Positions 6,349 through 32,633 of a stretch of 64,000 bases of DNA are shown in pieces. Each line of letters begins with the position of its first letter. Within the stretch, counting starts at the first letter, position 1. This DNA is from Takakia lepidozioides (Eukaryota; Plantae; Bryophyta). A program made the position numbers and the translations under genes. The stretch covers positions 35,960,001 to 36,024,000 of the forward strand of contig CM060733.1 of NCBI GenBank assembly GCA_030704615.1, read 5' to 3'. Below the pieces are notes generated by a model. It was not told the origin of the DNA. It did no database searches and saw only the letters and a list, made by a program, of their open reading frames with translations.

Positions 6349-6917
6349 ATGAATCTGTCTCTTGTCTCCTGGAATGTGCGAGGTCTCGGCTCTAACCACT
6401 CTGCCCCCAAAAGGGCAAGGGTCAGAGCATGGGCCTCCACTCTGTTACGTGGTTCCAATATTATCTTTCTGCAAGAACACAAATTAAATCTACAAAAAAT
6501 AGCTTCCCTTGGTGCTTGGAAGTTGCCAGTTTAAGCTATAGTCGGGTCTGGAGGGAGCGCACACCATAACTACATACAAGGATGCCAAGAGAAACCTCTC
6601 CACGCTGTTACATGCCAAGGAGCAATTCTCCAGAGTCAAGGCTGGAGTCAATAGGAGCCTTAAAGGGGAAAAGATGAATAGATATTTCTTTGTTAAGGCT
6701 GCGCAGCGGCGAGCTGCGACAATTGTCCTAGCTTTGCGAGATGCAGATGGACTTTTGGTGGATAAGCCAAAAATCATGGCAGAAGTGGCAGCCTCATATT
6801 TTCAAGCTCTGTTTCAAAGGCAAGATCCTTCGCTGCAGAAACAAGAAGCAACTGCAGCCCTGCTGCACCACATCCCCTGCTCGATCTCTCAACTGGACAA
6901 ATCAAATCTGGCGGCCC
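6349..6917 (+). mobile_element. L1-like LINE ORF2, 5' part (APE endonuclease start plus linker), internally deleted and interrupted by the Gypsy element
   Basis: MNLSLVSWNVRGLG...IIFLQEHKL is the APE motif I/II; downstream GEKMNRYFF...YFQALF is the typical L1 linker. The reading resumes after 18826. Confidence 0.85.
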
Positions 6918-7004
6918 TGTCGTGCGCATACATATCGCTACACAACTACATCGCTGTCCAAACCACACCTACACATATATGCACAATAAAGTAGTCTGCC
7001 ACAA
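6918..7004 (-). repeat. Repeat A, terminal copy (87 bp)
   Basis: TGTCGTGCGCATAC...GTCTGCCACAA, identical by eye to 7354-7440. Confidence 0.95.
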
Positions 7005-7351
7005 TGATAAGAAAGCTAAGGACACACACGATGCAAAGCATGAAAACCAAAACCATCACTCTTTGAAATAGTAGTCGAGCCAGGGGCACCCCAAGCTATG
7101 GGGACTCCACCCCACAACAACCTACACTCCCATCATAAGCACTCTCAATCCTAAACGATGCAGGAGCTCGGTCGCGCAGGCTCAACTCGAGAAAGATGAG
7201 CCGCGCGACTGCCTCTCTCGTGAAGATAAGACGGACCAGGTGTCAAACTAAACTTGACACCTGATTTAACACTTGACCTAAATCCAAGTGTTAAATACAA
7301 ATAACTAGTTTTATTCTAGCTGTTTTCACACTGTGCTTATTTAACTTGACA
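7005..7351 (-). repeat. Repeat B (LTR-like, ~347 bp), 3' copy
   Basis: TGATAAGAAAGCTAAGG...TTAACTTGACA, near-identical to 18483-18826 apart from a few small indels. Confidence 0.95.
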
Positions 7352-7353
7352 GC

Positions 7354-7440
7354 TGTCGTGCGCATACATATCGCTACACAACTACATCGCTGTCCAAACC
7401 ACACCTACACATATATGCACAATAAAGTAGTCTGCCACAA
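7354..7440 (-). repeat. Repeat A, internal copy adjacent to the polypurine tract
   Basis: Second copy of 6918-7004, joined to repeat B by a GC dinucleotide (7352-7353). Confidence 0.95.
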
Positions 7441-7450
7441 TCGCCCCCCT
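7441..7450 (-). other. Polypurine tract of the Gypsy-MTase element
   Basis: The minus strand reads AGGGGGGCGA immediately before repeat A (TTGTGG...). Confidence 0.7.
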
Positions 7451-7699
7451 AGCTGGTGGATAGGTCCCTCTACCTCCAGATAGCTACAAGATGTAATAGC
7501 CACAGCCGTACTAAGTCCTCTATCACTGTCCCTATTGTACTCAAACTCTATAGACCAAGAGGCCGGGTACAAGAGTAGCCCCATCGTTAGTCGCCGTCTT
7601 GCAATCTATGAACTTGAGCCAAGATCTCGTGTGTTCAAGGTCTCCTAGTAGCTGGGTCTTGCGTTTCTTGTTAACCTCCCATGGTTGTATCCACTCCCA

Positions 7700-9012
7700 C
7701 TATCCAATGCAATGTGGACATAACCAATCCCCATCCGGAACCATCTCAAGAGGTGGAGTCAAGCATCCCATATGCCAACCTCTAGAGCACCGATCACATA
7801 CCAGCATGGTGGCTGCCCCTTTAGCAGACCCACACAACATGCACCTCAAACCTGCAGATACCACTGCCAGGTTTGGGTCAATCCTGCCATCGACATTCGG
7901 AAGGTGACATGGCGCACAATTACGCACATGGTCCTTCCAAGTGATGCCATCCCGACCCTCCAAGACCAAGACGCCTGAGGGCAAGACCTCTCGAACCCTC
8001 AAAATAACACGTCCTGCAGTCACATCCAGGGTCGTAGGAGCAGTCTGCTGCAGATAGACATAGTCACCAGGGTTGAATCTCCGAACCCCAGGACGATAGC
8101 CCCCACCACGTATGGTAGCATACCTCAACGTATCACGGTGTTGTGCAATGGCAAGGTTCTCGAAAGCCATGGGCATGACTCTCTTGAACAACTCTGCACG
8201 CTGCTCACATGCACGTGCCCACACGTCCGGATCGTCAAGGTTAAGAACTGTAGCAGCTTCTCTGCGAATGGATGTAGGCAAATCCGGCTCTCGGCCAAAG
8301 AGAAGAAAGTATGGTGAGAGAAAGAGGCAAGTGATGCTTGCTTGCTGAACCTGTAGCCCATGGCTAACCAGGGTAACTGAAGGTCCCAATCTCCTAGGTG
8401 TCCCTTCTGCAAGCCATACTTGCGCAAACCCCTCTTTACTGTCTGAACAACTCTCTCTGCCAAGCCATCGGCTTCAGGATGATCCCGAGAAGTGGTGCGG
8501 TGGTCTATCAAGGCTTTGTCACACAAAGCCTGAAACTCCCCCAAGAACTCTCTCCCTTGGTCCGTGAGTACCTCAGCTGGAGCACCGAATCGGCTAAGCA
8601 CACAATCCAGGAATGCATACGCAGCTCCCTCACTAGCCTTATCAGGCAATGGAACCAATTCAATCCACTTGGAGAAGTGCTCCACCATCACCAACACGTA
8701 CTTGTTGTGGCGCATGGTCAGTGGCAACGGCCCTGCGAAGTCAAGACTCCACCTGTAGCCCAATCCCATGATCGGAAGAGGGTGCAATTGTGGAGTAGGG
8801 GCGTTGAATGAAGCACGCACCCTGTCACACACCATGCACCTAGCCACAAAGTGTTGTACCTCTGTGTGCATACCACGCCACCAATACTGCCCCTGCAGTA
8901 GACTATGAGTGCGTCGCACCCCAAAATGCCCCAACTCCTCATGGGCATGCCGCACTAACCGTGCCCGCTGTGTTGGGTGAGGCACAATCCTCACTCGACC
9001 ATCCTCCCACAC
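7700..9012 (-). CDS. DDE integrase with C-terminal PHD finger (one frameshift near 8320)
   Basis: HHCC zinc domain (HEELGHFG...CMVC); core WSLDFAGP, VLTDQGREF, DGLAERVVQT; C-terminal C4HC3 CMLC...LVCDRC...WHMGC...WLCPHC (7703-7849). Confidence 0.92.
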
Positions 9013-10690
9013 TCGGAGCAGGTGTGTCCCCTCCCACCTGAACCTCTGGCTCGTTGTAGGATCCGATCCCTCTCCTTGGCAGTCATAGTGGCTGCCGTGT
9101 CTCCACTGCGGAGGTAGTCCAACACAACTGAATCCTCATGTATATCTTTGGCGCCACCCTGCTCATTGCTGGCCTCAGGGTCCTCAGACACTTGATCTAC
9201 AGTCATCCCTGTTGTAGGTCCAACCTGGCCTTCCGCTGCCAAGATACACAGAAATGCAGATGCATGCCATCCGGGCACCATCTCCTCGTCCGTCTCACCA
9301 TGCCACCGAGCTCCAGTGTCATCCTGCTGGCTCGTGCATGGATTGCGACTCAACCCATCTGCATTTCGATTGACCAAACCCGGTCGATGCACCACCTGAA
9401 AGTCATACTCTTGAAGGATGAGTGCCCACCGTGCAAGCTTCCCCGTAAGCTTGTCTGACTCCATCAACCACTTGAGTGGTTGGTGATCCGTGACAAGGGT
9501 GAAGAGATTGCCGTATAAATAGCACCTGAAGTGTGCCACGGCCCACACTGCAGCTAAGCATTCTCCCTCATATGAGCTATACTTAGACTCTGCAGCATTG
9601 TTCGAGCGGCTAGCATAAGCCACTACGAACTCTCTTCCCTCATCATCCACCTGTGTGAGCACCGCTCCAAGCCCCAGCATGCTCCAATCTGTATGCAGCT
9701 GAAAAGGACGCCCCCTGATAGGTCGTCTCAAGATGGGCGCCGAGGTCAACCTCGCCTTGAGCTCTTGAAAAGCTTGTTCTTGCTCATCTTCCCACTGCCA
9801 CTCCTGGTCCACCTTGGTCAGCTTGGTTAGAGCCTTTGCAATGGCACTAAATCCCTTAACAAACCGTCTGTAATAGTTTGCTAACCCCATGAAAGCTCGA
9901 ACTCGGCTCACATCCGTGGGGCGTGGAACCTGTGCAATGGACTCTACCTTAGTCTGCTGTACCCCCAATCCTCCAGGATATATCATGTGACCCAGATACT
10001 CAATCTGGTTGTGGAAAAACTTGCACTTGCCCGGATGTAACTTCAATCCGTGCGTCCTCAAGCGCTCAAATACCCCCTGAAGGTGTCTCTCATGCTCCTC
10101 CACCGTAGCACTAAAGATGATGATGTCATCTATGTAGCACCGAGCAAACTCCACCCCTGCTAGAATCCTGTCCATGACTCTTTGAAACTCAGCGGGAGCG
10201 TTTTTAAGCCCAAATGGTAAGAACCGCCACTGGTATAGGCAATCTTCCGTGCTCATTGATCCCCCAGAATGCCGTCTTTTGCTTATCCGCCTCCTTGATC
10301 GGCAACTGGTGATATCCGGATCGTAAATCCAACGTGCTAAAGACCTTGGAATGCCCAATGGCATCAAAGATCTCCTCTGGTGTTGGCATGGCATACCTAT
10401 CGGACTGGTCTGACGATTTACAGGCCGGTAATCACCGCACATACGTCTCTCCGTCCAATTGCCATAGACATCCTTCTTAGCTGGCATCACTGTGGCTGAA
10501 GCATACTCTCCACCAGAGAGCTCCACCAAACCTGCCTCCCAGAGATCTTGAGTCCTCATCTGAATCAAAGACCTCTCCATGTCACTGTATCTATAGGGTC
10601 TCCGAAAGATTGGCGTGTCAGTGGCCAACTCAATACGGATCTCTTGACCCTTCAGTGCTCCCAAGTCCTTCAAACTGAAGGCAAAGCAAT
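8991..10690 (-). CDS. Reverse transcriptase and RNase H (frameshifted)
   Basis: [22 protein letters not shown] (alternate frame), PFGLKNAPAEFQR, YIDDII, LHTDWS, YEGECLAAVWA, TDHQPL. Confidence 0.95.
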
Positions 10691-11124
10691 TCCTGTAAGC
10701 CCTCAGGAACCGCCGTATACGTCGTCTCTCTCCTCCGGTGACAATGGGTCCAATATCAGGCTCCCAATTGTCCTCCGTAACTGCAACCTTAAGTCCAGTG
10801 GGCTTAGAGGTAGAGGACGCGTCCCGTGGTTGCTATGCTGCAACCTCTTGAGCAGTACCCCCTTCCTGCTCAATCAATGACAAGGCCTCATCCTGCCCCA
10901 TCATCTCATCATTGAGAACCTCCTCATCCCGAGAAGAATCCCCAACCTCATACATCACAGCTGCCTTCGCTGCCAACTCCCTCTGAACCTCGAGCACCTC
11001 CCACATGTGCCATGGATGTCTACACCTCGTGGTCCTCACCGGCTCGCCCCCACTCGCTGCCTGTACCGTCTCGGTAGGCAGAGAGACCATCAAGGGAAGT
11101 GCACTCCGCACTCTACGTTGCTCA

Positions 11125-12085
11125 GCCATAGCCAAGCTGACAATCCAGGTCAAGCAATTGAGATCCATTGCTTGCCCCAACACCTGACGACGTGATGCCT
11201 CAGAAAGGGAAGGCACCGCCGTGGTCCCAGTGGAAAAACCCCATAGCCCGCTCTCGCTCGTCGGCATTAGGCTCCACTAACTGCTGCAATTGAGCATCCC
11301 ACAGGAGGCCAGGTCCACCATCCCGAAAAGCATGGGATCCTGGGAAGCTGAGCAGTGTAGGTAATGCTGCTCGTGGTTGACCCACCCTGTTGACCACTGC
11401 CAAAGGCGAACGGTCATCGTGTCTCACACGTTGAGACTGCCTTCCTGTGTCCAAAATGCCATCCACGGTGAGGTGTGCTAGCCGCTGCACCCCATCAAAT
11501 GCACGCTTGAGCAGTGCGGGTGGCATCAAGTTAGTCCACCATAGTCGTGGACGATGAGCCCGTGACCCCACTGCAGCTGCATCCAGCAATACTGCTGACC
11601 CAAGCCACGACCGGACTTGATGCACACTGGCCATCACCCTGGCCCGAGAATCACCCATCAGTGGCACATTCTCCAAGATGTATGCCGGAGATACAGCCTG
11701 ATGAAGCTGCAAGTGGCGCAAAATCCGCACCATCTCCCAAAACAGACCCGTCCTCGAGTCTCGCAATCCATTGCCATGCCCGGCTGATGAATGCCCTTGG
11801 CAGGGCCAACCTGCCACTACCAGATCAATGGAGCCAACCCTGCTCCAAATCCTGCGCCCCCAGCAACGCAATGTCTGCTGGCAAGGCCTGAGTATCCACG
11901 AACTGCAGACACGGCAACAACTCAGGGTGCTGCTGCACCATCTGAGCAACATGGCGCAGTGAGACGCGTCGTGCAGTCTCATCCCTCTCCACATACAGGT
12001 AACGTCGTACTCGTACACCTGCCTGCAAGCACTGCAGCCAATCCAGTGCTGATCCCGCCAAATAAGTCAGAAGGCATATGCCTTC
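11125..12085 (-). CDS. C5-cytosine DNA methyltransferase domain within the retrotransposon polyprotein (split by about four 1-bp indels)
   Basis: Ordered motifs: I DLFGGISTG, II YVERD, III PADI, IV DLVVAGWPCQGHS (catalytic PC), VI YILENV, VIII RAHRPRLWW, IX ERERAMGF, X RRQVLGQAM. Confidence 0.9.
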
Positions 12086-12479
12086 ATCCGGTCGCTGCCA
12101 CACAAGAGGTGTGGTGTCCAATGGCGACAACTGAGGTGGCCCTGGTACAATCACCGCACTCTCCTCCTCTCCTGACGGTACAAAAGCTTTTACCCAAGCT
12201 TGTTGCACCCGTCCATCAGCAGCGTGCTGCAAATCCTTGCTCGTACCCCACAACGGAGTGTGAGCAACCATGGCAGGCAACTCCGCCGTACCATGCATGT
12301 CATCCTGCTCTGCTGGAGGTGGCACATCCTCTGCATGGGCATTGCCTTCCAGCAACTCTCCAGGCCAGCTGACTGCAGCTGTGAAGGCGGCTAGTGTTGG
12401 CATCTTGCCCCGCTGGAGCAGCTGCAATACCCCCAATGAATGTCACAGGGAGCTGTGCACGGCGACCATCCCCTGACTG

Positions 12480-12900
12480 CCATCCAGGCCTGTAGGATGC
12501 TGACTCCTCCCAGAAAATCCAGGGTGAAGCCCATGGGGTATAACACTGCCCCACCAACAAGGAGGACATCGTAAGAGACCGCGTCTGTCACAATGGCCTT
12601 GGCTCGCATCACTGAGCCATCTACAGGATGATCCGGCTGCAGTCTAATAGCCAACTGATGCCGTGTCATGCCGCGAGCCTGCTCTGATCCTCCCAGAGAT
12701 GTCTGTATCTGGAAAGGACAAGGCTCCATATCCGCCTCCATGAGGCCCAAACCTGCAATAGCAGCTCTGCCCAACATCAGTGGCTGAGCTCCTGAGTCCA
12801 ACAAGACCCGCAGTGGCCGGTACTTCTTGCCTGCCGGTCCACTCAAAGTGAAAATGCCTCCCTGGTTGTCTAACAAGACAACTCCAGGTGTCACCATGGC
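12480..12900 (-). CDS. Retropepsin-like aspartic protease
   Basis: VLLDSGAQPLMLG active-site motif; downstream YDVLLVG resembles the D-x-x-x-G closing motif. Confidence 0.8.
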
Positions 12901-13198
12901 GCGCTCAAAGGCTGGCCTAGCTGGCAGCTCCGTCAACCTGGCAGCTGCGCTTGCGCCCCAGGCGCTGCCGTGGCAGTCTTGACCCTCAAATCCGAGGATC
13001 CCTCTGCCACTACACCTTCCACTAACTCCGCAGAAGATGAAGTGACCCTCCACTCTCACAGAGTGTTGTGCTAGTCTGAACACTGCAGCTGGTCTCCCCC
13101 GGCGTCGCAATCATGGTTGCCGAGAACAGTGGGGCTTGACACACAAGAGGTGGCTGCTCCCAATAACACACCGGCTGCACTAGCCTTGGTAGCAGGTG

Positions 13199-14853
13199 TC
13201 AGTGCTGCACGGTAGCTCTCCCCAATGGCATAGTAACCTCCGCCTCGGTAACAGTCGGGCGAGAACTAGGTGCCATGGATGGCGTTGACACTGTCTCCGC
13301 CAATGTGAATGACTGAGGAAGCCTTGCCTGACGGCTTGCCTCCCCACGCTGTGGATCCAATTCCACCTCTGCACCTCGTGGCTCAGGAACTCGTGTTGCT
13401 CCTCGAGTCACGGCTGCAGCAGACTCCACCTGCTCTAGTGGTAGTGCTGCTCCGCACATGAATCCCATGCCTCCCATATCTCCTCCATCAGGAGCAGGAG
13501 GTGGACCATCCCGCCTGGGAGCCGGTACCGCCTGAGCTATAGCCATGGCAGCGAGCCTCTGCTCTAGCTGCTGAAGCCGTTGGCCATGCCTTGGTCAAAA
13601 CCTGACCTCCGCGTCCTTGCCATGTGGAGCTTGCCCTTGGCCTGCACCTCGTGCCCGACCACCTCGTTCCTTTGGGCTGGTCCACCTCGCCCCCGGCCCA
13701 CCATTGTTCCCTGGAACTGGCCTGGGCGCAACTCAGGATGCAAGTCATAACACTGGGCATCTACATGCCCATACTTGCCACAATGCCCACACTGCAACTG
13801 TGCAGGCTGTGCTTGTGCCGGCCTTCTGCCACTCTCTGGGCAATCTCTCTTGACATGGGGTCCTCCACATGTCCAACATATCACCCCTGGTTGCTGTTGG
13901 CCTGCAAAAGATGCCACGGGCCTCTGCACCTGAGGTCCCCTGTAAGCTCCATGGAACTTGGGGCTGGGCAACCTTGCCCCCCTGACCACGCTGTTGGGCA
14001 GTCCCTTGTGCTTGTGGGCTGACAGCTGTGCCCCGTACAGGCATGTCCTTACAAATCCAATTGTAACAACTCGCTCCTCCACCATGTTGAGCTCAATCCG
14101 CTCAGCCAGACAAAACACATCTGCTAATGTGGGTTGGGCTGCTTGTAACAGGGTTGCATCTCGCACCCTTCTCTGAGCTCCTTGTCCAGAATTCCATACC
14201 AAAACTGGATTGCCTGAGCTTCAGTAACCCCTTGGGTCACACTTATCAAGCGCCTCATACGAGTGTACGCCTCTCGCAGGCTCTCACTGGGTTTGCGCTG
14301 GAAGTCTTGCAAACTTCGCAGCTTTCTCTGTCCGTACACCTTGGTAGTTCCTCCGCAACTCCTGGAAGAACTCCACCACCGGGTGGTTGAATCTAGGCAC
14401 ATGTGTTGTAGCTGTGGCAGGAGGAGTAGTAGCACCTTTTGAACTGGTACCACCTGCAGAAGTACCAGCACTACTGCTCCACTACTAGTGCTGGCAGTGT
14501 GGGAGCTATTGGTACTGATGCAGCTACTGGTCGCGTCGTGCCTCGAGTAATGGAGACGTAGTCAGGTGACCAATACATCCTCCACTCCTCAATCTCTGCT
14601 TCATGTCCTGCCTGAACTCGTGGTAATCGTCCATAGGCGGGCCTTCCAAATGCTGGAACAGTCCCTTCCACGCCATGAATGGGGTGAATAGATGTGGATT
14701 GCGCATCTGCTGCAAATCACACCAGCTGTCGAACTCCTGGATAAAGTCATCCAACTCGATTGTGCCCACAGCTCCAGAGTACCTACGAGGCCCCTTGGTA
14801 GCTCCATACATCTCCTCCATGTCGTCCCACAACAATGGCGAATGAAAGTGCAC
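13199..14853 (-). CDS. Gag-like protein with two zinc knuckles (frameshifted)
   Basis: Capsid-like YSGAVGTIELDDFIQEFDSWC and FQRKPSESLREAYTRMRRL; knuckles CWTCGGPHVKRDC and CGHCGKYGHVDAQC. Confidence 0.8.
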
Positions 14854-16899
14854 ACCTGTTGATGAAGCCTCCGAGTCTGTGTCTGACTCTACAGTAATTG
14901 AGGGTGGCGGTGTGAAGGTGGTCTGAACCGAATACCTCGTCTTGTGAACCCACTCTCACTGTTACTGCCTGTAGCCGTACTCCCCTCAAAACCCTTGGGT
15001 AACTCCGTAATGACACTCACAATGTGCACCTCCTCCACGTGACACTATAAGGCTCTAGTACTAATCTAATAGTGACACGGGTTGGCACCTGTTGCAGTCT
15101 AAGGGTCATATCCCAGTGGCTCAGGGCACCTGCACCTGCATCCACCGCAAGAACTCCTATGGTTGGCTGGTCATCAACCCAGCCTCACCATAGAAGAAAC
15201 ACTGGTGGTCTTGCTGGTCATCACTCCAGCCTCACCACCGACAGCATACTCTAGGATTGACGGTGATCAAATCCGGCCTAATCCCTATGAAAGCAAGCGC
15301 CCACACAAAACCAACATGGAGGCAGTCACAGTCAAGCATGCAGGTGTTGGGGGGGATCCAAACACAAGAAATCAAAACATCAACACCCCCACACCAAAAT
15401 AAAGCAGACAACGCTGATGACCTGGAATATCCCGCCAAAACCCCGGACTGACTGGCCTCCACAAGAGAGGCTTTGGCAACTACAAGTACAAGGTAATGAA
15501 AATAGTATACAGAGATGATGGAGGGGAAGCAAAAGAATAGAAGCCCGACCAAGCAAGATCTAATCCTGATCTATGCTATCAACTGCCAGACTTCTCTCAA
15601 AGTGCCTCGTATGCATGATGGTAAGGTGTAGGAGGTATATCTATGTCCAGGAACCCTGCCACTAACCTTGTCCCAAGCTACAGTAGCTCGCTCTAACCAA
15701 CCCTCCTCCTCTTTCTGCCAGGTAGAGACAAGCAATACTCCCCTATCTCCCGCTCACTGAACACTAAAGAAAACAAAGGTAGGGTGATAGTCTCTCAACT
15801 CGACAAAGCTTTGAGACGGTTTGCGGGTGTCCTCATTGCGAATGACTGCATCTCATTCACGCACAACAAACATGTCATTTGCTGATGAACCCGCCGTCGG
15901 TTGCCCTGTGCGAGCGGATCCGGCTTGCAAACCATGTTGATTGCACACAAACTTGTGTAGCTCCTGCTCCTCTGCATCCAGTACACCACGGCCTTGTGGA
16001 TGAACACCTGGTCCCCGGCTGTGCTGTCTTGGCTGTGTTCCAAGCCTAGCTTCCACCCACTTTGGTATTTCACCTACAGCTGCAGAACTGCTGGCTCCAA
16101 CAGAGTTTTGACTGTCCAAGCGATATGAGGCCCTCAATGCCAACTACAGCAGTCTGTGTCTATGCTAATGCCTGACTCCAAGTATTGACCAACAACTCGT
16201 CCAACTGTTCTCCACTCAAATCAGTCTGAGTTCCTTGGGAAACATAAATCCTGTCCCCTTGTGGCACAGGATAAGAGAAGAAGAGACCTGCCTTCAATTA
16301 CGTCTCATTTCCCCCCAGCCATGCAAGGAGTAACATCCACAGATTGGCTCTCTATGTAGACCAGCACAGGTTCTAGAGACAGGATTGGGATCTTTTAGGC
16401 ACACTCCACTCTAAAATTCCATAGATTTTTAGCAGAGTCCCCAAAAAACAGAAAAGGGTATAGGGGTAGGTAGATATTCCCCTTTTGCAGATATTCCCCA
16501 CAATGAGTCCCAAAGGCCTTTGCCCACAGATATGCCCCCTTTGGCTCGACCTATTACCTTCGATCACAAAGAACGGTTTTTTTTTTTTTTTATATGTGCC
16601 CCACCCCAGCACGTTGTTCTTTGTGTTAGTGCTTCCCCCTTATTTATTTACCTGTTCCCTTAGCTTGCTGATCTAAGGTGTTTCTGTTAATTTGGGGTCG
16701 CCTCGCCATTACCACGGAGCAGCTCGATTTTTGGACTCCGATCGGCTTCTCCTCCATGATGGACCGCGTTGCCGCTTCGTCATCCCTCAGCTGCATTTGT
16801 TCAGGTGTCCGTCCCACATACTGATCATTGCTGACTCTCAGGTCGTTTCCCGTAAGTTCCAGCTCGCATGGAGGGAGATTACCGGCAGCCTGCACTTCA

Positions 16900-17180
16900 A
16901 CTCGACTGCCTCCCTGATACCATGCTGTGGATCTGACCAGTACTCAATGCTTCATGCAGACACATATTGATCCGCGTAGTCGGTCGCGAACGGCAAGTCC
17001 TCTGCATCCCCTTCACTAATCGTGCACTCCTTGAGAGGTGCCTTCTCCTTTGCTTTAGCAAGCTGGTGAGGATTGATCCAGAATGCTCACATTCTTGGCA
17101 TCCACAGTTTTTTCAATCCCCAATGTGGCGAATCCCGTGCCGCCACCAACATCTACCACCACCAAGGTAGGATCATCGAG
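16900..17180 (-). pseudogene. VTE3: Captured fragment of MPBQ/MSBQ methyltransferase (VTE3/APG1), SAM-binding part
   Basis: Manual translation: LDDPTLVVVDVGGGTGFATLGIEKTVDAKNVSILDQS(fs)HQLAKAKEKAPLKECTISEGDAEDLPFATDYADQYVSA*SIEYWSDPQHGIREA. This matches plant VTE3 as I recall it. Confidence 0.9.
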
Positions 17181-17440
17181 GCAAATCTGAAGTAAGTTAG
17201 GCTGTTTTTGAATTGGGTTTCAGCGATGGCAATGGCTGCAAGGATGGGCACCATCGGCAGTGGAAGGGGTGACAGTTGTGGACAACCAACAAAGGCTTCG
17301 CTCTCGGGATATCCTGCAGGTTTGAGCTCATCATCATGCTTACATAGGTTAGCGTCGACAGGCTTGTTGCTCAGCGGGCAATTATAAGCCAAGAACTGGA
17401 GCGTGCATGTGAGCAGAAGGAGAAACGTAGCGATCTTCGA

Positions 17441-17618
17441 TTGCGGGCTGTCAGTGCAGACCAAAGCGTCTCAAGGCCTGCGTCGCAGCTGCGGTTCATC
17501 CAGCACAAGCAGGAGGCATTCTGGTTTTACAGCTTAGTGTCTGTATTGTACGACCATATCATAAACCCTGGGCATTTGGGCGGAGGACATGCAGGAGGAT
17601 ACTCTAGAACCAGCAGAT
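17441..17618 (+). pseudogene. VTE3: Captured fragment of VTE3/APG1, N-terminal part (opposite strand to the other fragment)
   Basis: SRPASQLRFIQHKQEAFWFYSLVSVLYDHIINPGH(fs)WAEDMQEDTLEPAD, the segment immediately preceding LDDP.. in VTE3. Confidence 0.9.
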
Positions 17619-18466
17619 GGACCTCCACAGGAGCAACGGTGGCCAGAGCACATAGGAGAGCTTTAGCAAGCTTGGTGGAGCTGACAAAGTCACCAACAAT
17701 TATCATTGTCTGATTCTGTAGTTGCTGCAAGGGCCTCTCGTCGTCCAGTGGCCATGGCAACGGGAAATCTAATGGCATCCATTGCTGCTGCAGATACTTA
17801 GTATCCAAGCCCTCTGTGATCACATCTGCGCATAGGGGACGATGAAGGTCAGGCTTTTGCGAACAAGAGAGCAGGGAAGAAGAAACAGCTTCAATTTCTT
17901 GCTTTATACTTAGGACCAGCCGATGGAGCTCCTGCCCATTCTAGCCTGTACATCGTCAGCATCGTTGCTGGAGGGCTCAACCCAAGCACCCAGTTGGAAT
18001 GTGCGCTCAGCTATGACGTTGGCTTCCCAGCAGCCCCTTCTCAGGAGAAGAGCCACAGTCCAGAAGCTTCGTGTGTTGATTCCCTGGATTACTGGCCTGA
18101 TAGCACTGTTTTAACCCACACCTGCGTAAGGCAAGCTCGTCGCCGATGACACTGTGAACCTGACGAACTAATGCCGCCGGATCACTTATCCAACAAGAGC
18201 GCATCTGCCTTTCGGAAGTGGAGACCCTTGATATATGCGTAAAGAACCACCGGTGCCTCCGACATAGGAAGGCCTTCGATCACATGCAAACTAGGGGCAG
18301 GCATAGGAAAACCAACGACAAGTTGATGATCAATCGCAAGGCTAGAATCTACCAGAGAAACCTGCAGCTCAAGTTTTAACCAACATAGAGCCCCCGTCTC
18401 TCTCTCTTTCAAAACAAAAACCACAAGTGCTAAAACTAAACTCACCTCTGGCACTCACAGATGCAA

Positions 18467-18483
18467 GCTCATCTTTCTCGAGT
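18467..18483 (-). other. Self-complementary primer-binding site
   Basis: GCTCATCTTTCTCGAGT (+) abuts repeat B and is the exact reverse complement of ACTCGAGAAAGATGAGC at 18660-18676 inside B. No TGG-tRNA PBS is present. Confidence 0.85.
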
Positions 18484-18826
18484 GATAAGAAAGCTAAGGA
18501 CACACACGATGCAAAGCATGAAAACCAAAACCATCACTCTTTGAAATAGTAGTCGAGCCAGGGGCACCCCAAGCTATGGGGACTCCCCCACAAAACCTAC
18601 ACTCCCATCATAAGCACTCTCAATCCTAAACGATGCAGGAGCTCGGTCGCGCAGGCTCAACTCGAGAAAGATGAGCCGCGCGACTGCCTCTCTCGTGAAG
18701 ATAAGACGGACCAGGTGTCAAACTAAACTTGACACCTGATTTAACACTTGACCTAAATCCAAGTGTTAAATACAAATAACTAGTTTTATTCTAGCTGTTT
18801 TCACACTGTGCTTATTTAACTTGACA
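18483..18826 (-). repeat. Repeat B (LTR-like, ~344 bp), 5' copy
   Basis: Near-identical to 7005-7351; TG...CA ends. Confidence 0.95.
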
Positions 18827-19750
18827 GCCCCCCTGTCAGTGTACTTTGGCTTCGCAAAAATCGCCAGGACTGGATGGTCTCCCAATTGAACTTTTTAAAG
18901 CGCTATGGCATACAATTGGGGAGGACTTCCTCCTTATGGCTAATGATATTATGGTAAAACAGATAATGCCCTCGCAGATGGCGGAAGGTCTCATTACTCT
19001 AGTCTTTAAGAAAGGAGATAGAGAAGATTTGGCCAACTACCAGCCAATCACTTTGCTAAACTCAACTTACAAGATTATCGCAAAGACCCTGGCCTTGAGG
19101 TTGCAGCCCCTCCTGCCGAAAATTATTAGGAAGGAGTAGACTAGCTTTCTCAAGGATCGGATGATCTTAGACAACATCTTGCTGGCCCACGAGGCCCTTC
19201 ACAGAGCAGAAATAAACAGCCAGCCGCTGGCCTTCTTAATGCTTGATTTTGAAAAGGCCTTTGACTCCATTGATTGGACTTTTCTGGAAGGGGCTATGGA
19301 GAAATCAGGGCTGGGAGGGCCTTTCCTGACATGGGTCCACATCCTCTTGCATGCAGCATCCAGCAAGGTCATGGTTAATGGGGTTATATCGAAGCTCTTT
19401 CGCATTTCCAGATCGGTGCGGCAGGGTTGCCCCCTGGCACCCTTCCTCTTCCTCATAGCGGCGGACTCGCTGGGTCACATGTTGCACTACAGGCAAGACA
19501 TCATTGGCCTTCACTTGCCCACGCTGACCCTGGAGATGCTGAAGCTCTCGATGTATGCAGATGACACTACACTATTGCTGGACAACTCCACAAAGGCCAA
19601 CGTTGACAAGGCACTCTAAATTCTCCACACCTTCTGCCTGGCTACAGGGCTCAAGGTCAATTGGAAAAAATCAATGGGCATTTTGTCCAAGCTGCATAAT
19701 GAAGCAATGCCTATCCACCAATGGGACCAACAACTCTCACATGTATTTGA
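18827..19750 (+). mobile_element. L1-like LINE ORF2, reverse-transcriptase part (degenerate, in-frame stops)
   Basis: KSPGLDG, NYQPITLLNSTYKIIAK, LDFEKAFDSIDW, RQGCPLAPFLF, YADD. Confidence 0.92.
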
Positions 19751-19950: not shown

Positions 19951-20509
19951 GTAGAAGGTCTTCCTCCTCTTGAGCCTAGACTCCTTATATCCGCCTTAAT
20001 TTTAGCATCCTTCGCAAGTGTGTCCTTAGTAAGCTTCCCAAGGTCCCTCTTACAACCTCCAATGCAGGGTACCAGTGTCCCGCGTTGATAGAGAGGAGAT
20101 TATTAGTCTTAGATATTGAAATTATATATTACAAATTGCATGATCCTAATTCGCTTATTTAGTTACCTTTGGTCTCCTGACTCCATTTACATTTTTTTTT
20201 TTCTTGCGCCTTATATTCTTCACTGGGGCCTAAGTTGTCCCTTTCTTCATTCTAGCAATGACCGAAGGTCGGAAGCTAGTTTAGCGTAGAGCAGGTATAG
20301 GGTGCCATAGTGTCATCGTCGCCACATCATCGTAGCCAGGTCATCGTCGTCGTCAATTTCTTTGGAATCTGCCCGGAGGGCCCGCGCGAAATAGGCCAAT
20401 AGAAATCGTCGCGCCAACGTCTTTGGAACTGCCCGCAATGCCCGGATCTTGATCTTCTTGAACTGCAGGAGCTCTGCGTTTTCCGCCCATCGTTCACCTT
20501 GCAAGCAAC

Positions 20510-21110
20510 ACCACATCTTGTTCAGCCATTTGAAAACTCCCTTCGCATCCTTCATGCACCCACATTTGGCATACATGTCCACCAGGGCAGTGTTCAGGAT
20601 GACATCTGGTACAAATCCATTTTTGACGATGTCACCATGGACCTCTTCCCCCTTTTCCAGAGCTCCTAGGCTTGCACATGCATTGCAAACACAAACAAAT
20701 GTGCTGCGGTTGGGCTTCACCCCTTCGCACATCAATTGCTCATAGGTCTCCAAAGCCTCCATCCCGCATCCTTGCTGTGCATATCCTCCAATCATCGCAC
20801 TCCACGACACCACACATCTCATTCAGCTATACTGTTGAACACTCCCTTTGCATCCTCGATGCACTCACATTTGACATACATGTCCAGCAGGGCAGTGTTC
20901 AGAATGACATCGGGTATAATTCCAGATTTGACGATGTCACCATGGACCTCTTTGCACCTTTCCAAGGCTGCCAGGCTTGCACACGCATGTCCACGAGGGT
21001 ATTGTTCAGAATGACACTTGGTACAATTGCAGCTCTGACAATGTCGCCATGGACCTCTTTCGCCCTTTTCCTGAGCTGCCAGGCTTGCACACGCATCGCA
21101 AATGCACACA
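20510..21110 (-). pseudogene. PLS-class PPR repeats, inverted copy
   Basis: [74 protein letters not shown]. Stops and deletions present. Confidence 0.88.
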
Positions 21111-21142
21111 ATCTCAACAAGTCAATTGTGGTCGTAAGATAC

Positions 21143-21241
21143 CTTTTTCCAGTCTCTACCATATTTCCGAAATGCTTGATAGAAGAGCTCCGGGTCCTCT
21201 TTGCTCCAGGGAGGTCCAAGTATGTTCGACAATTTGCGCTT
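21143..21241 (-). pseudogene. Orphan exon of an ALWAYS EARLY/LIN-9-like gene (N-terminal SANT/Myb domain)
   Basis: AG/GT-bounded 99-nt exon encoding [33 protein letters not shown], which matches the ALY-type KRKLSD.LGP.WS.EEL..FY..YRK.G..WKK motif. Confidence 0.75.
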
Positions 21242-21529
21242 CTGATCACCAGCCCGCCCACTCACCTCAGTCCCATAACCGCATTCAAGCAGCATCCAAA
21301 ATTGGATTTCACTCTTGCTCACGCTGGGTGTGCTACCCATCTGCCCAGTCCCAATGGCACCATTGCTCCTGGATATGGAATTTCGTCGGGATCCAACAAC
21401 CTGCAACCTGACATCACCAAAATCAGGCAAATTGTTCAATTGAATGCCTTTGATGAGGATGGATCTATAGGCAAAAATAGAAAGAGAGCTCAATTTGCTG
21501 GGACAGAAAGTGATATTCCTTGAACGCGA

Positions 21530-24500
21530 TGCAGCTTGCAGGGTATGCACAGCAGGGGCGTGGGATGGAGGCTTTGGAGACCTATGAGCAAGGGGGGAGG
21601 GGTGAAGCCCGACCACATCACGTCTATGCGCTGGACATATGTCAAATGTGAGTGCATCGAGGATGCAAAGGGAGTGTTCGACAGTATGGCTGAATGAGAT
21701 GTAGTGTCGTGGAGTGCAATGATTGCAAGATATGCACAGCAAGGATGCGGGATGGAGGCTTTGGAGACGTATAAGCAAATGTTGCGCGAAGGGGTGAAGC
21801 CCAACCGCATCACATGAGTTTGTGTTTGCAATGCGTATGAAAGCATGGGAGCCTTGGAAAAACAAGGACAATGTGGTGAGGGCACCTTCTTCGTCGACCA
21901 GCCTGTTTTGCGCTCTCATCAGATTCAGCCCTGAGATGCATATTGAATTCTGTAAGTTAGCTCGTTGGGTGGATCTGTGGTGGTTTGGAATGACTTTGAC
22001 AAGTAACTGCCGCGAGGCAGCAGGAAAGTCTCCAAAAACAAATAACAGAGATGAGGATCTACCAAGCATGGGTGTGGTACGAATGCTTTGGAGACCTATG
22101 AGCAAATGATGCATGAAGGGGTGAAGCCCCACCACATCACGTTCATTTGTGTTTGCAATGCGTGTGCAAGCCTGGGAGCCTTGGAAAAGGGCAAAGAGGT
22201 CCATGATGACATCGTCAAAGCTGGAACTAACCAGATGTCATTCTGAACACTGCCCTGGTAGACATGTATGCCAAATGTGGGTGTATTAAAAATGCAAAGG
22301 GAGTTTTCATTTGGACATGAAATGATTAACACTGGCCTTTTTATGCAGTTGGCTGTTTCACTTGGTAACAATAATACTCTTCACTAGGAAAAGGTAGCAA
22401 AAGCACTGCACCCATTTTTCTCGAAGGAGAAGACAACAATGTCCTACTGCGGCAGGTCCGTGCTCCAGTTTTAATTCAGATCTAGGAGCAAATGTTGCGC
22501 GAAGGGGCGAAGCCCAACCACATCACATTTGTTTGTGTTTGCAATGCGTGTGCAAGCCTAGGAGCTCTGGAAAAGGGGAAAGAGGTCCGTGGTGACATCG
22601 TCCAAGCTGGAATTGTACCAGATGTCATTCCGAACACAGCCCTGGTGGACAAGTATGCCAAATGTGGGTGCATTGTCAGACCTGCAATTGTACAAAATGT
22701 CATTCAGAACAATACCCTTTTGGACATGTATGAAGGGAGTTTTCGACAGTATGGCTGAACGAGATGTGGTGTCGTGGAGTGCGATGATTGCAGGATATGC
22801 ACAGCAAGGGTGCGGGATGGAGGCTTTGGAGACCTAGGAGCAAATGTTAAGGGGCGAAGCCCAACCACATCACATTTTTTTGTGTTTGCAATGTGTGTGC
22901 AAGTCTGGGAGCCCTAAAGAGGTCCGTGGTGACATCGTCAAAGCTGGAATTGTACCTGATGTCATCCTAAACATTGCCCTGGTGGATATGTATGCCAAAT
23001 GTGGGTGCATTAAGGATACGAAGGGAGTTAATTTCAACACCATGGTTGAACGAGATGTGATGTCGTGGAACGCGATGCTTGCAGGGGTATGCACAGCAGG
23101 GGCGTGGGATGGAGGCTTTGGAGACCTATGAGCAAATGATGGGGGAAGGGATGAAGCCACATCACGTTTGTGTGCGTTTGCAGTTCGTGTGCAAGCCTGG
23201 CAGCCCTGGAAAAGGGCAAAGAGGTGCATGGTTGCATCACCAAAGCGAATTGTACCCGATGTGATTCTGAACAATACCCTCGTGGACATGTATGCCAAAT
23301 GTGGGTGCATCAAAGATGCGGATGAAGTGTTCAACAGTATGGCTGAACGAGATTTGGTGTCATGGAATGCCATGCTTGCAGGATATGCACAGCAGGGGCG
23401 CGGGGGATGGAGGCCTTGGAGACCTATGAGCAAATGATGGGTAAGGGGGTGAAGTGCGACCACATCACGTTTGTGTGCGTTTGCAATGCTTGTGCAAGCC
23501 TGGCAGCCCTAGAAAAGGGCAAAGGGTGCATGATGACATCATCAAAGCTGGAATTGTACCAAGGTTGCAATGCGTGTGCAACCTGGGAGCCCTGGAAAAT
23601 GGGAAAGAGGTCCGTGGTGACATTGTCAAAGCTGGAATTGCACCAGATTCATCCTGAACACTGCCCTGATGGACATATGCCAAATGTGGGTGGATCGAGG
23701 ATGCAAAGGGAGTTTTCAACACTGTGGTTGAAAGAAATGTGGTGTCATGGAACACTATGCTTGCAGGGTATGCACAGCAGGGCATGGATGGAGGCTTTGG
23801 AGACCTATGAATGATGGGGGAAGTGTGTGAAGCCCTCATGGAGTGCAATGATTGCAGGATATTAAAGTGGAGAACAACCTTCTTGACGCCAAATGTGGGA
23901 GTGGAAAAGATGCACGTCAGGTTTTCGACAAAAATGCCTGAACGAGATGTGTGGTCTCATGGAATGCCATGATTACAGGATATGCTGAGCATGGCTATGC
24001 TGAAGAGGCTTTCAAGATACAAGCAAATGGAACTGGACGCGATGACACCGAACAAGGTCACATTCGTTTCTGTTGTCAATGCATGTGCCAGTCTAGGGGC
24101 CCTGGAAAAGGGCACGCGGGTCCATGCTGATATTAACAAAGCTGGGGTTGTGTCATATATTAACTTGGACAATGCCCTTGTTAACATGTATGCCAAATGT
24201 GGGGAGTGTTTCACGATGCACGTCAAGTGTTTGAAAAATATGGTTCAGCAAGCATGGAATGCCATAATTGCAGGATATGCTCAACATGGGTGTAGTACAG
24301 AGGCCTTCCAACTATTTGAACAGATGCAACAGGAGGACTTGAAGCCAGATGGTATCACGGCCTCACTCCTACAGTGGAGCATTTTTGCTACATTGTGGAC
24401 CTTCTTGGCCGTGTAGGCCGATGAGATGAGGCAGATGACTTCATCAACAAAATGCCAATTGAACCAGATGCTCTGGTTTGGGGGACCTTGCTTGCTGCTG

Positions 24501-25430
24501 CGCCAGAATTCATGGGGATGTGGAGGTAGCAGAACATGCAGCAAAATCTCTTCTCAAGTGCGATCCAAACCACCATGCAGCTTATGTGCTGCTATCCAAC
24601 ATCTACGCCGCATCTGGCAGGTGACAATATGACACAACATGATGTGGTTTCATGGAGGACCATGATTGCAGCATATGCTCGACATGAGTATGGTAGGGAG
24701 GCTGTTGAGATGTATGACAAATGCAAAATAAAGGGCTAACGCTCAACAACGTCACATTCACTTGTGTTCTCAATGCATGTGCCAGCTTGGGAGCCTTGGA
24801 GAAGGGCAAAGAGGTCCATGCTGACATCATTAAATCTGGAATTGCATGCTACATAAGAAGACTACGCTTGTGGACACGTATGCAAAATGTGGGAGCATAA
24901 AGGATGCGCGTCAAGCTTTTGACAATTGGCTAAACGAGAGATAGTATCATGGAACACCATGATCGCAGGGTGTGCTCAACATGGATGTGACAAGGAGGCT
25001 TTCGAGATATATGAGAGATTGCAGCAAGACAGGCTGGAGGCTTTGGAGACCTCTGAACAAATGATGGGGGAAGTGGTGAAGCCCGACCACATCACGTTTG
25101 CGTGCGTTTGCAGTGCATATGCAAGCCTGGCAGCCCTGGAAAAGGGCATGGTTGCATCGCCAAAGCTGGAATTGTACCAGATGTAGTTCTGAACAATCCC
25201 CTCGTGGACATGTATGCCAATGTGGAATGCGATGATCGCAGGATATGCCCAACATGTTGTCATAGGGAGGTCCTGCAACTATTTGAAGGAATGCAAAAGA
25301 ATGGCTTGAAGTTGGACAGCCTTTATATGTGTTCTCTCTGCATGCAGCCACATTGGCCTACTGAATGAAGGAAGACGGTACTTTGATTCCCTGAGTCAGA
25401 TCATGGTATCACCCGACTAAAGCACTTTGG
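21530..25430 (+). pseudogene. Degenerate PLS-class PPR gene(s) with an E/E+ domain remnant (organellar RNA-editing factor family)
   Basis: Many tandem P-L-S triplets ([40 protein letters not shown]). E-domain remnant at ~24370-24620 (VDLLGR..INKMPIEPDALVWGTLLAA..YVLLSNIYA across frames). Numerous stops and frameshifts, with non-PPR inserts. Confidence 0.88.
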
Positions 25431-25642: not shown

Positions 25643-26374
25643 TGTCGCGCACCTCACTTCGGTAAGCTCCCCTTCAAGTCATAGTTACTCGCTTTGATGC
25701 GCGCGCGCCTGACTCCCCAACCTGGCCGCCGGGCCAACTCGGGAGCTTCGGCTGCTCACCGGGACAAACGGTCCCCTTCGCTCTCCCGAAAGACCCTCCA
25801 CCTATTTGGGCCTAGTGGAATTCCCTTTGGTAGATGGCAGTCCGGAACAGCTCCCCCACTCTTTGGTCGCTTTCCGGCGGCTTGCTTACTCACTAGTTTT
25901 TGGACACCAACGGGCTTGCACCGTTCTCGGGGTTACTACTCCCCTATATATACTTCTGTAGCTGTCCGCGGGGGGGTTTCACAACCAGCCATGCCATTTT
26001 ATGGCGAACCACCACGAAGACCCTCGACTCCCGGTGGTGAGTCGCGGTGAGTCTTGGCCCTCTCACCACGACCCCATTGGGCCGTGATGAGTCCCAAGAC
26101 TCCCCACGACTCCCACCACGAGGTCTCCACCCTGTGGTGGGTCCTATGCCACCCCCACTAAGACCCGCTAAGCTACCACCACCCCTTGTGGAGCCACCCC
26201 ACCGCAACCCGGTGTGCAGGGCTCCACCTAGTGAGCGCCTCCGCCTCCTTGAGTGCCTTGGACACTCAAGGGTGCTTCAGCCCCCCCCATACCTATCGCT
26301 GCCGCTGCCCCCACCACAGGGGCAGCCCCTCATGTGTCCCGAGACCCACGCCCTCAAGGCAAAGGGCCGCGACA
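25643..26374 (-). repeat. 3' LTR of the chromovirus
   Basis: Direct repeat of 31908-32633. Confidence 0.95.
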
Positions 26375-27241
26375 CACACCCGTACCAACAGGGAGTCGAT
26401 GTCCTCATCGACTTGTCCCATTTTGTAGAAACGAAACATCCAAGTTGTGGCGTCCCACATCAAGGGAGTTTGTTTCCGCACCATGGCGTCCCATGGCAAA
26501 GAACCAAACCCCACACTTGACTCTACTCTCCACTAGCTAGTTCGGCCGACTTCCTCCAAGTCCCGTCCAAGGGTGGAGCCTCTCAAGCTCCTCTCCAGTG
26601 CACTCTTCTTGGCCTACTTTAAGGCCAAGGAACGATCCTCCCCGAGGATCGAATCGCCTTACTGCAACAACATTGCTTGCGACCGCTCATGATGCCGCTT
26701 TTTGCATCATCTTGAGCAGGGTTCCCTGGGAAACCCTCTTTGACTAGGAAGAAACCTTGAACCAACCGTGCGCCCCAATCACTACAATTGGGTCCGCCTT
26801 GGAATGCTGGCCTGAGGTACGGGAACACGCCGAAGCCGTACTACGACTACGTCCCGAGGCTACACGATTATAGTACGTGAACGGAAGCACGTAGCTTCCG
26901 CGTTAGCCCGCACTACAAGGCGACCCCCTCGGTAGCGCAGTTATAGTACGCGCACGCGCCAGGTGCGCACACAGCACGTGAACTCCCAAAGAGGTGCAAG
27001 TTTCCTTGCCCCTTGGATGGGGGTCACCCAAATTTCGGCACTACGCAAACACACGATTAACCCAATTTACCTCTCCCACTTTATAAGCTAGCATGCATTC
27101 TACACCACTAGCCAAACCATACCATGCATCACCATTCCAAACAAAATAGGACGCACAACATTTTGGAAATCCATTTCATTTATAGCACGTTTTGTACAAT
27201 AAAAGTTTTTGCAATCGGATTCCTAAGCTAGCTAAGCCGGG

Positions 27242-31655: not shown

Positions 31656-31893
31656 CTATTGGTTTGTCGGAGCTCTCAAGGATTCCTCGGGCTCCGACTC
31701 CTCAGATTTTCTCCGCTCTTGCGCGGCCTCATTTTCAGAAGCATGCATCGCTTCCTCAAACGGCCACCTCGGTGACACGTCGCCCCATCGGGCTCACCAG
31801 GGTCATCATCTTTTGGGCCATTCCGCTTTCGCTTTGGCTTGCCCGACCCCATGATGAGGCCAATCCCAAGGACGATCGCGTACTGGACTCTAA

Positions 31894-31905
31894 GCTCTGA
31901 TACCA
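31894..31905 (-). other. tRNA-iMet primer-binding site
   Basis: Minus strand TGGTATCAGAGC, 2 nt after the 5' LTR. Confidence 0.92.
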
Positions 31906-31907
31906 AG

Positions 31908-32633
31908 TGTCGCACACCTCACTTCGGTAAGCTCCCCTTCAAGTCATAGTTACTCGCTTTGATGCGCGCGCCTGACTCCCAACCTGGCCGCCGGGCCAAC
32001 TCGGAGCTTCGGCTGCTCACCGGGACATAACGGTCCCCCTTCGCTCTCCCGAAAGACCCTCCACCTATTTGGGCCTAGTGGAATTCCCTTTGGTAGATGG
32101 CAGTCCGGAATAGCTCCCCACTCTTTGGTCGCTTTCCGGCTCGCTTGCTTACTCACTAGTTTTTGGACACCAACGGGCTTGCACCGTTCTCGGGGTTACT
32201 ACTCCCTATATATACTTCTGTAGCTGTCCGCGGGGGTTTCACAACCAGCCATGCCATTTTATGGCGAACCACCACGAAGACCTCGACTCCGGTGGTGAGT
32301 CGCGGTGAGTCTTGGCCCTCTCACCACGACCCCATTGGGCCGTGATGAGTCCCAAGACTCCCCACGACTCCCACCACGAGGTCTCCCACCTATGGTGAGT
32401 CCTATGCCACCCCCACTAAGACCCGCTAAGCTACCACCACCCCTTGTGGAGCCACCCCCACCGCAACCCGGTGTGCAGGGCTCCACCTAGTGAGCGCCTC
32501 CGCCTCCTTGAGTGCCTTGGACACTCAAGGGTGCTTCAGCCCCCCCCCATACCTATCGCTGCCGCTGCCCCCACCACAGGGGCAGCCCCTCATGTGTCCC
32601 GACCCCCCGCCCTCAAGGCAAAGGGCCGCGACA
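31908..32633 (-). repeat. 5' LTR of the chromovirus
   Basis: Direct repeat of 25643-26374. Confidence 0.95.

Follow-up and report, generated by a model that had tools for sequence, protein, structure and literature searches.

A Ty3/Gypsy-type retroelement of Takakia lepidozioides with a DNMT3-type cytosine methyltransferase, an in-frame stop codon before reverse transcriptase and split terminal repeats

What kind of cytosine methyltransferase lies between the protease and the reverse transcriptase (RT) of a bryophyte retroelement, what element carries it, and what could it do there? The question is raised by a 64,000-nucleotide stretch of Takakia lepidozioides DNA (contig CM060733.1), the whole of which was analysed and is referred to here as the window. 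The methyltransferase (DNMT) domain had been predicted from the letters alone to be intronless, oriented like pol, canonical in motif order and interrupted by nothing but indels. This description was borne out: the domain occupies positions 11125-12085 of the minus strand, in the same orientation as pol and with no introns, and frame translation of the window gave motifs I, II, III, IV, VI, VIII, IX and X in canonical, non-permuted order. Three frame changes were found (between motifs I and II, just before IV and just after IX) and no in-frame stops. The motifs and their two landmarks were located as follows.

12784-12804, minus: protease active-site motif, upstream of the DNMT
12042-12068, minus: motif I, DLFGGISTG
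11981-11995, minus: motif II, YVERD
11870-11884, minus: motif III region, LPADI
11797-11829, minus: motif IV, IDLVVAGWPCQ
11665-11682, minus: motif VI, YILENV
11536-11562, minus: motif VIII, RAHRPRLWW
11236-11274, minus: motif IX, EPNADERERAMGF
11163-11192, minus: motif X, RRQVLGQAMD
10119-10136, minus: RT YIDD motif, downstream of the DNMT

The methyltransferase and the element that carries it

A single unjoined frame of the domain matched the Pfam family PF00145 with an E-value of 7.9e-13 and 49 bits, above the curated cut-off of 22, which answers the profile check proposed with the prediction; the two short outer frame pieces, taken alone, matched no Pfam family. The catalytic Cys of motif IV, the Glu of motif VI, the Arg-x-Arg of motif VIII, the SAM-binding motif I and motif X are all present in the window. 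The conservation of catalytic residues across copies, likewise put forward as a check, was found in 179 near-complete DNMT domains drawn from 246 proteins with identity down to about 35-40%: the Cys is conserved in 173 of them, the Glu of motif VI in 177 and the two Args of motif VIII in 173 and 175. FGGIST and GQA, which had been called variants, proved to be family forms common among relatives. FGGIST recurs in the relatives from Marchantia and Calypogeia and in one from Sphagnum, FDGIAT is the aligned sequence in DNMT3A, and the G and D of the motif X sequence GQAMD are conserved in 170 of the 179 near-complete relatives. Judged by sequence, intact copies of the DNMT are likely to be catalytically active.

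A profile of 23 relatives was compared with solved structures and matched DNMT3A best (E 1.8e-22), then DNMT3B and 3C, with DRM2 (3e-8), HhaI (1e-6) and DNMT2 (1e-4) lower; the window piece alone again placed DNMT3A first, weakly (E 5e-5 against 6e-4). The DNMT of locus L005, which is naturally unbroken and 68% identical to that of the window, gave a structure model of mean pLDDT 96 that could be superposed from end to end on DNMT3B/3A (Z 29.9, rmsd 2.5, 272 aligned), the bacterial CpG enzyme 4dkj (Z 25.7) and HhaI (Z 24.4) being lower matches. We regard both the identity of the domain, a C5-cytosine methyltransferase of DNMT3 type, and its lineage as close to certain. The original prediction that the domain is not MET1, CMT or DRM holds, the nearest solved structures being DNMT3A/B. 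Specifically, a DRM identity was rejected because the motifs run I to X with no circular permutation, and a MET1/CMT identity because no BAH or chromo domain was found in the flanking frames or in the Marchantia relative P0004. Among viral contigs there was no sign of a close donor: 11 loci matched, each over a short stretch confined to the surroundings of motif IV (E 9e-10 to 6e-5). Non-flowering plants have a non-permuted DNMT3 of their own, which the prediction had omitted (PMC6453930). This host DNMT3 and animal DNMT3A/B have the same catalytic fold and motif order as the element DNMT, whereas the host genes, unlike it, have introns and extra domains (PMC6453930). Algal element DNMTs were reported as a clade separate from and more divergent than host DNMT3 (PMC5890265).

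The domain belongs to a retroelement with the following features.

6918-18826, minus: whole retroelement of 11.9 kb, Ty3/Gypsy type, with TG..CA termini, within LINE-like sequence
6914-6917 (left) and 18827-18830 (right), plus: 4-bp target-site duplication
18483-18826, minus: 5' repeat X, 344 bp (self-comparison)
18661-18676, minus: 16-mer within X, complement of the primer-binding site and likely transcript 5' end
18467-18482, minus: predicted self-priming primer-binding site, directly after X
16300-18400, unstranded: low-copy sequence inside the 5' untranslated part (from depth, limits approximate)
13200-14960, minus: gag and zinc-knuckle region in several frames (from Pfam and identity to P0004, limits approximate)
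12514-12966, minus: aspartic protease (E 0.011, under cut-off; 57% to P0004)
11125-12085, minus: DNMT3-type C5-cytosine methyltransferase with three frame changes
10827-10835, minus: in-frame UAG (stop 10833-10835) then CAA-CCA, between DNMT and RT
9045-10766, minus: reverse transcriptase and RNase H (RVT_1 2e-23, RT_RNaseH 3e-36)
8317-9045, minus: integrase, H2C2 zinc finger and DDE core (rve 2.6e-14, Integrase_H2C2 2.8e-16)
7709-7843, minus: PHD finger at the integrase C-terminus (PF00628, 4.9e-11)
7440-7456, minus: polypurine tract
7354-7439, minus: repeat Y, inner copy, 86 bp (86/86 identical to the outer copy)
7348-7357, unstranded: palindrome GACA-GC-TGTC, at the junction between the end of Y and the start of X
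7005-7351, minus: repeat X, 3' copy
6918-7003, minus: repeat Y, outer copy, which is the 3' terminus of the element

The domain order is gag-PR-DNMT-stop-RT-RH-IN-PHD. The gag region was recognised by weak Retrotrans_gag and zf-CCHC matches (E about 0.07) and by 36-45% identity to P0004, and the LINE flanks by an endonuclease-like piece on the left (E 0.056, weak) and a LINE RT on the right (E 2.5e-16). The order PR-RT-RH-IN, the DDE integrase, the TG..CA ends and the 4-bp duplication are those of Ty3/Gypsy elements; two complete LTRs are absent, X standing alone at the 5' end and Y-X-Y at the 3' end. The enzymes are therefore Gypsy-type and the ends non-canonical. No tyrosine recombinase family was matched among the 11 element frames scanned with Pfam, and no tRNA gene was found in the 64-kb window.

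Other features of the window were noted in passing. A conventional chromovirus-type Gypsy element lies on the minus strand at 25643-32633 (LTRs 96.6% alike, 5-bp target duplication, chromodomain E 2.6e-10); its LTR begins TGTCG and ends CGACA, its primer site is one that we take to be of the tRNA-Met type, and no DNMT match was found in it. PPR-repeat coding pieces with many frame changes cover 20300-25400 on both strands and represent pseudogenes or further indel errors, and a direct repeat pair at 51885-52233 and 56753-57081, 87% alike and 4.9 kb apart, is possibly an older LTR element.

Priming site, stop codon and split terminal repeats

Both in the window and in locus L032, the 5' X is followed by 16 nt whose reverse complement recurs without mismatch as a 16-mer within X; the two 16-mers differ at 10 of 16 positions, yet each pairs fully. 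Among nine relatives the pairing extends over 16/16 positions in four and over 12-13 of 16 in five, and an RNA fold contains the long-range 16-mer helix (z -5.18). This pattern argues that the element probably primes its own reverse transcription without a tRNA.

The DNMT closes the Gag-protease frame, and a conserved in-frame stop, which had been overlooked, precedes RT. The readthrough motif of tobacco mosaic virus is UAG-CAR-YYA (PMC3159437, PMC2194720), and the window sequence UAG-CAA-CCA fits it. A linker stop in the RT frame was present in all 45 rows in which both flanks were available, with TAR-CAR in 35 and other contexts in 10; of the 35 stop-CAR rows, 30 belong to a single subfamily of near copies and have CAA-CCY, which departs from CAR-YYA by one base. 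In five rows (the window, L005, L037, L038 and L057) the first stop has the exact motif, and in four more the motif lies further upstream in frame. Several Marchantia, Calypogeia and metagenome proteins likewise terminate after the DNMT. One frame without a stop joins DNMT and RT in Klebsormidium nitens P0107 and in four metagenome proteins (P0068, P0086, P0098 and P0103), so the stop is not needed lineage-wide. Readthrough of the UAG between DNMT and RT is quite probable, and with a readthrough stop after the DNMT, both DNMT and protease would be made at Gag stoichiometry.

Self-comparison placed X at 18483-18826 and Y-X-Y at 7439-6918, giving the layout X...PPT-Y-X-Y; these split repeats, too, were absent from the original prediction. 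Because the polypurine tract stands before the inner Y and the primer site after the 5' X, ordinary reverse transcription should produce a DNA bounded on both sides by Y-NN-X. In its integrated form the element lacks these ordinary linear ends and is bounded by the two halves of the palindrome GACA-GC-TGTC. Among the contig ends listed for the data set X2, at least 34 leave the stretch exactly at 7354 and continue into flanks that are unlike one another (agreement 0.37), which makes the palindrome half a family-wide terminus; ordinary ends may occur among the 101 loose ends outside that listing. Since the conventional chromovirus in the same window has paired LTRs, the assembly is not itself the source of the split ends.

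The same organisation was found in relatives. Eleven loci in which X is followed by the primer site start at X beside unrelated flank, and in none does Y precede X. Y-X-Y is present in L008, L032 and L064, of which L032 is complete with the window layout, and the distant L047 and L048 have the same repeat pattern with worn joints. An exact 4-bp duplication borders four of five two-ended elements (the window, L018, L032 and L041), and in L028 three of the 4 bp agree. Seven loci end at tract-Y with no X-Y tail; X...Y forms (L011, L013, L018, L019/L021, L029 and L030) could also reflect a collapsed assembly or recombination between Y copies. Of 27 rows, 8 have the palindrome behind the coding region, whereas shuffled sequences contain it at 0.014 per kb, and the rows that carry it include L049, L065 and L067 of a second element layout, RT-RH-DNMT-IN-PHD; it was not found in the other 19 rows, some of which are short or end at Y. 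From element to element, the X-to-Y joint differs by one or two letters.

Two oddities were seen among the repeats. In L041 (12917-13198) and L042 (5538-5819) the X-to-Y joint is 17 letters long and its first nine letters are those of the primer site, as if primer sequence had been kept; L041 has the exact 4-bp duplication together with a 5' X. In L006 (1676-2014) a lone X with no primer site lies close to the protease region and next to a duplication of 333 bp.

A circle opened at the palindrome would give X...Y-X-Y if it contained two repeats and X...Y if it contained one. Circles of LTR elements and retroviruses are usually regarded as dead ends; circle-junction integration by IS3-family DDE enzymes provides an analogy, and loss of the 2-bp spacer resembles retroviral end processing. 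We infer such a circle from the repeats and somewhat favour the view that it is opened at the palindrome.

Relatives, selection and the state of this copy

Annotated relatives at about 65-73% identity were found in Marchantia and Calypogeia, and more distant or partial ones in Sphagnum, Haematococcus, Klebsormidium, Cymbomonas and Scenedesmus; in total 492 cluster representatives matched with E-values no higher than 1e-10. The nearest named relatives are liverwort proteins, which, like the PPR pieces close to the element, accords with a land-plant host. Bryophyte annotations accordingly contain 'DNMT3' gene models, Marchantia proteins for example, that are transposon open reading frames. The 75 metagenome loci show two layouts, PR-DNMT-RT as in the window and RT-RH-DNMT-IN-PHD (14 loci). 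In quick unrooted trees of 66 rows (54 of the 246 proteins, the window and 11 loci, with proteins lacking a long DNMT or RT-RH match excluded and host DNMT3 not among the rows), a single branch separates the two layouts with support of 97 for DNMT and 99 for RT-RH. The window stands beside Marchantia inside a 13-row group that also holds K. nitens P0107. The agreement of the two trees indicates that the association of the domain with the element is an old one; the same two groups, spanning land-plant and algal elements, appear in both, in keeping with the earlier statement that this did not look like a recent capture.

A large sister group (L049-L069, L075 and proteins such as P0092 and P0132), the named members of which come from chlorophyte algae, has the DNMT between RNase H and integrase, and no description of it was found in the literature searched. 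In P0105 from Cymbomonas, Pfam matched protease-like, DNMT and integrase regions and no RT or RNase H.

The window differs from its nearest loci by dN of 0.21-0.27 with saturated synonymous sites, and as most between-lineage dS is saturated, dN/dS is not computable for the window itself. It is 0.13 for the pair L037-L038, and its median over 55 pairs, mostly inserted near copies, is 0.42 for DNMT and 0.38 for RT-RH; neither median lies near 1, the value named beforehand as speaking against the prediction.

The two X copies of the window show 344 identities, no mismatches and three gaps, and the Y copies agree at 86/86. Repeats free of substitutions point to a young insertion, and the element is highly repeated and likely young. 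In X2, the summed contig depth of the element, including its DNMT, exceeds that of the flanks by about three orders, a figure that is not a copy number, and the DNMT, RT and integrase regions have depths of similar order. Over the low-copy stretch at 16300-18400 the depth drops to flank level and no Pfam family was matched under E 0.04; this 2-kb stretch is likely a later insertion in this copy. Among six listed records of same-organism contigs (X1 and X2) that fall entirely within it, four have 0-2 other letters and 4-15 gaps, and the remaining two have no gaps. Such gap-rich, substitution-poor matches mean that the window carries many indel errors or private indels. Many of its indels look like assembly errors; in the high-copy part, error and mutation both fit. 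The window copy cannot be read as one open frame, and contigs from three runs have no frame break near 11,840. In run X5, which we guess to be RNA, part of 16300-18400 is deeper than the element and an opposite-strand joint was seen at 17175/17576.

A proposed replication route and its comparison with known systems

Based on these features, we propose a route in which the RNA would start inside X and its 5' 16 nt would fold onto the site after X, priming reverse transcription without a tRNA. Most ribosomes would stop at the UAG and yield abundant Gag-PR-DNMT, while a minority would read through into RT-RH-IN, and the protease would free the DNMT inside the particle. The linear product of reverse transcription would carry a full Y-NN-X repeat at either end, and these ends would be joined into a circle. 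The DDE integrase would then cut the GACA-NN-TGTC palindrome after each CA and insert the opened circle, a two-repeat circle giving X...Y-X-Y and a one-repeat circle X...Y. The DNMT would mark the DNA de novo, most likely at CG, and new copies would arrive methylated.

The reading of this element as a Gypsy retrotransposon with a DNMT3 that ends the Gag-protease frame, is packed in the particle and likely methylates the element's own new DNA before insertion has, in our judgement, slightly more for it than against it. Taken by itself, the proposition, made already in the original prediction, that the element's own cDNA is the target is finely balanced, a little to the doubtful side. The observed/expected CpG ratio is 0.51 in the element, 0.84 in the neighbouring chromovirus, 0.36 in the LINE and 0.56 in the rest of the window; the element thus lies below the chromovirus but is not set apart below the LINE or the remaining sequence, and its composition gives no specific sign of self-methylation.

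The DNMT might instead be active and selected but have its target elsewhere, either in the nucleus (integrated copies, rival elements or the chromatin of the host) or in the element's RNA. In favour of such targets, the abundant Gag-protease frame would supply more enzyme than one cDNA needs, the DNMT slot differs between the two element groups, the element has no specific CpG loss, and the integrase already has a chromatin reader of its own in the PHD finger. On the other hand, both groups have retained the DNMT within the polyproteins that form the particle, its tree follows that of RT, and its fold is that of the DNA-acting DNMT3, with DNMT2 far weaker (E 1e-4 vs 1e-22); on the whole we consider action away from the cDNA unlikely. 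A decaying passenger with no present role would account for the three frame changes of the window copy, for a within-subfamily dN/dS of 0.42 and for the presence of an unbroken full-length DNMT in only 17 of 76 rows, but RT-RH is in a similar state (14 of 53 unbroken, dN/dS 0.38), as expected from copies that mutate after insertion. The catalytic residues are moreover kept in 97-99% of the 179 relatives, down to about 35-40% identity, and the contigs of three runs pass 11,840 unbroken, which leaves this explanation very improbable. It is scarcely credible that a host methyltransferase retrocopy or a misassembly placed the DNMT in one element by accident: the window is indeed rich in indel differences from same-organism contigs, but the same order recurs in proteins of Marchantia, Calypogeia, Sphagnum and Klebsormidium as well as in independent contigs by the dozen, and depth over the DNMT equals that over the rest of the element.

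As to the ends, the split repeats could be rebuilt by template switches in the manner of PAT and Ngaro, with a linear substrate that ends at the start of X and the end of Y and no ligated double-stranded circle. Tyrosine-recombinase elements have this A-coding-B-A-B layout (PMC5890265), most DIRS-1 cDNA consists of linear single strands (PMC7192593), and the circle proposed here was deduced, not observed. Template switching fits poorly, however, with the positions of the primer site, where X ends, and of the polypurine tract, where Y begins, which define ordinary linear ends other than the integrated ends, and with the variable X-to-Y joint (one or two letters, 17 in L041 and L042), which fits an end-joining product. 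We hold this route, too, to be unlikely.

Extended to the whole clade, the circle-based reading would be that across the green lineage, from chlorophyte algae to land plants, a DDE integrase normally inserts a circle via a palindromic att site inside the terminal repeat, and that the DNMT3, raised to Gag levels by a leaky stop in the land-plant branch, pre-methylates the circle so that copies arrive pre-marked. We advance this wider version tentatively and with some reservation. If it is true, the clade looks built to integrate from circles with a DDE enzyme, standard LTR finders would miss or mis-bound such elements, and a transposon family abundant in at least one land plant would make its own de novo cytosine methyltransferase. 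Because relatives occur in Marchantia, where host methylation mutants exist, the question of the captured DNMT's role, raised for an alga in 2018, becomes testable.

KnitGypsy-Dnmt3 of K. nitens was described as an intronless, non-permuted DNMT3-type domain in a Gypsy polyprotein under purifying selection (de Mendoza et al. 2018, PMC5890265), with a DIRS-like repeat layout combined with Gypsy enzymes noted in a legend; methylation of cDNA by the captured DNMT was already proposed there. The isolated K. nitens domain gave no methylation in yeast, from which the authors draw no firm conclusion, and the SymbioDIRS-Dnmt3 enzymes, an independent capture in a dinoflagellate host, methylate CG de novo in yeast (PMC5890265). 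A DNMT3-type domain in a Gypsy polyprotein and A-coding-B-A-B repeats are common to KnitGypsy-Dnmt3 and the window element. The latter differs by its land-plant host, its very high repetition, its stop between DNMT and RT and PHD-tipped integrase, KnitGypsy-Dnmt3 being encoded in one frame (PMC5890265). The lineage shared with K. nitens rests on P0107 (PR-DNMT-RT-RH-IN, 45% identity, in the window's group in both trees), which may be one of the named KnitGypsy-Dnmt3 copies of the paper. The portion of PMC5890265 consulted holds no discussion of target duplication, palindrome, self-priming or integration route. With its stop between DNMT and RT, the window element is placed as a related land-plant variant and not in the K. 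nitens family itself.

Other systems share single traits with it. SymbioDIRS-Dnmt3 has split direct repeats and a DNMT3-type enzyme as here, with a tyrosine recombinase in place of the DDE integrase (PMC5890265). A 2026 preprint, which names streptophyte Gypsy-DNMT3 as a separate known case, describes EpiLTRs/DAM-LTRs, LTR elements that carry DNA methyltransferases as this one does; the EpiLTR cytosine enzyme is sister to DNMT4 and is accompanied by an adenine methyltransferase and a chromodomain (bioRxiv 10.64898/2026.05.21.726589), neither of which Pfam matched in the frames of the window element. PAT-like and Ngaro elements have split direct repeats like these and a circular intermediate has been proposed for them, and PAT and DIRS carry a methylase (PMC7192593); an rve integrase, a polypurine tract, TG..CA ends and the 4-bp duplication set the window element apart from PAT, Ngaro and DIRS. 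Tcn1 and Tf1/Sushi lack a tRNA-type primer site and have a predicted self-complementary site after the 5' repeat, as here (PMC6317226), but have a chromodomain and paired LTRs where the window element has a PHD finger, a DNMT and split repeats. Troyka, considered as a candidate for elements with three repeats and characterised by CG..CG ends, a 3-bp duplication and animal hosts (PMC12440569), was rejected, as these traits are not those of the window element. Land-plant members, the stop codon and circle integration were not found described in the literature searched; Repbase was outside its scope, and the supplements of PMC5890265 and of the 2026 preprint could list members. The design of a methyltransferase within a Gypsy element is known from an alga, and the window element is a land-plant variant of it that has a readthrough-type stop, a predicted self-priming site and split ends suggestive of insertion from a circle.
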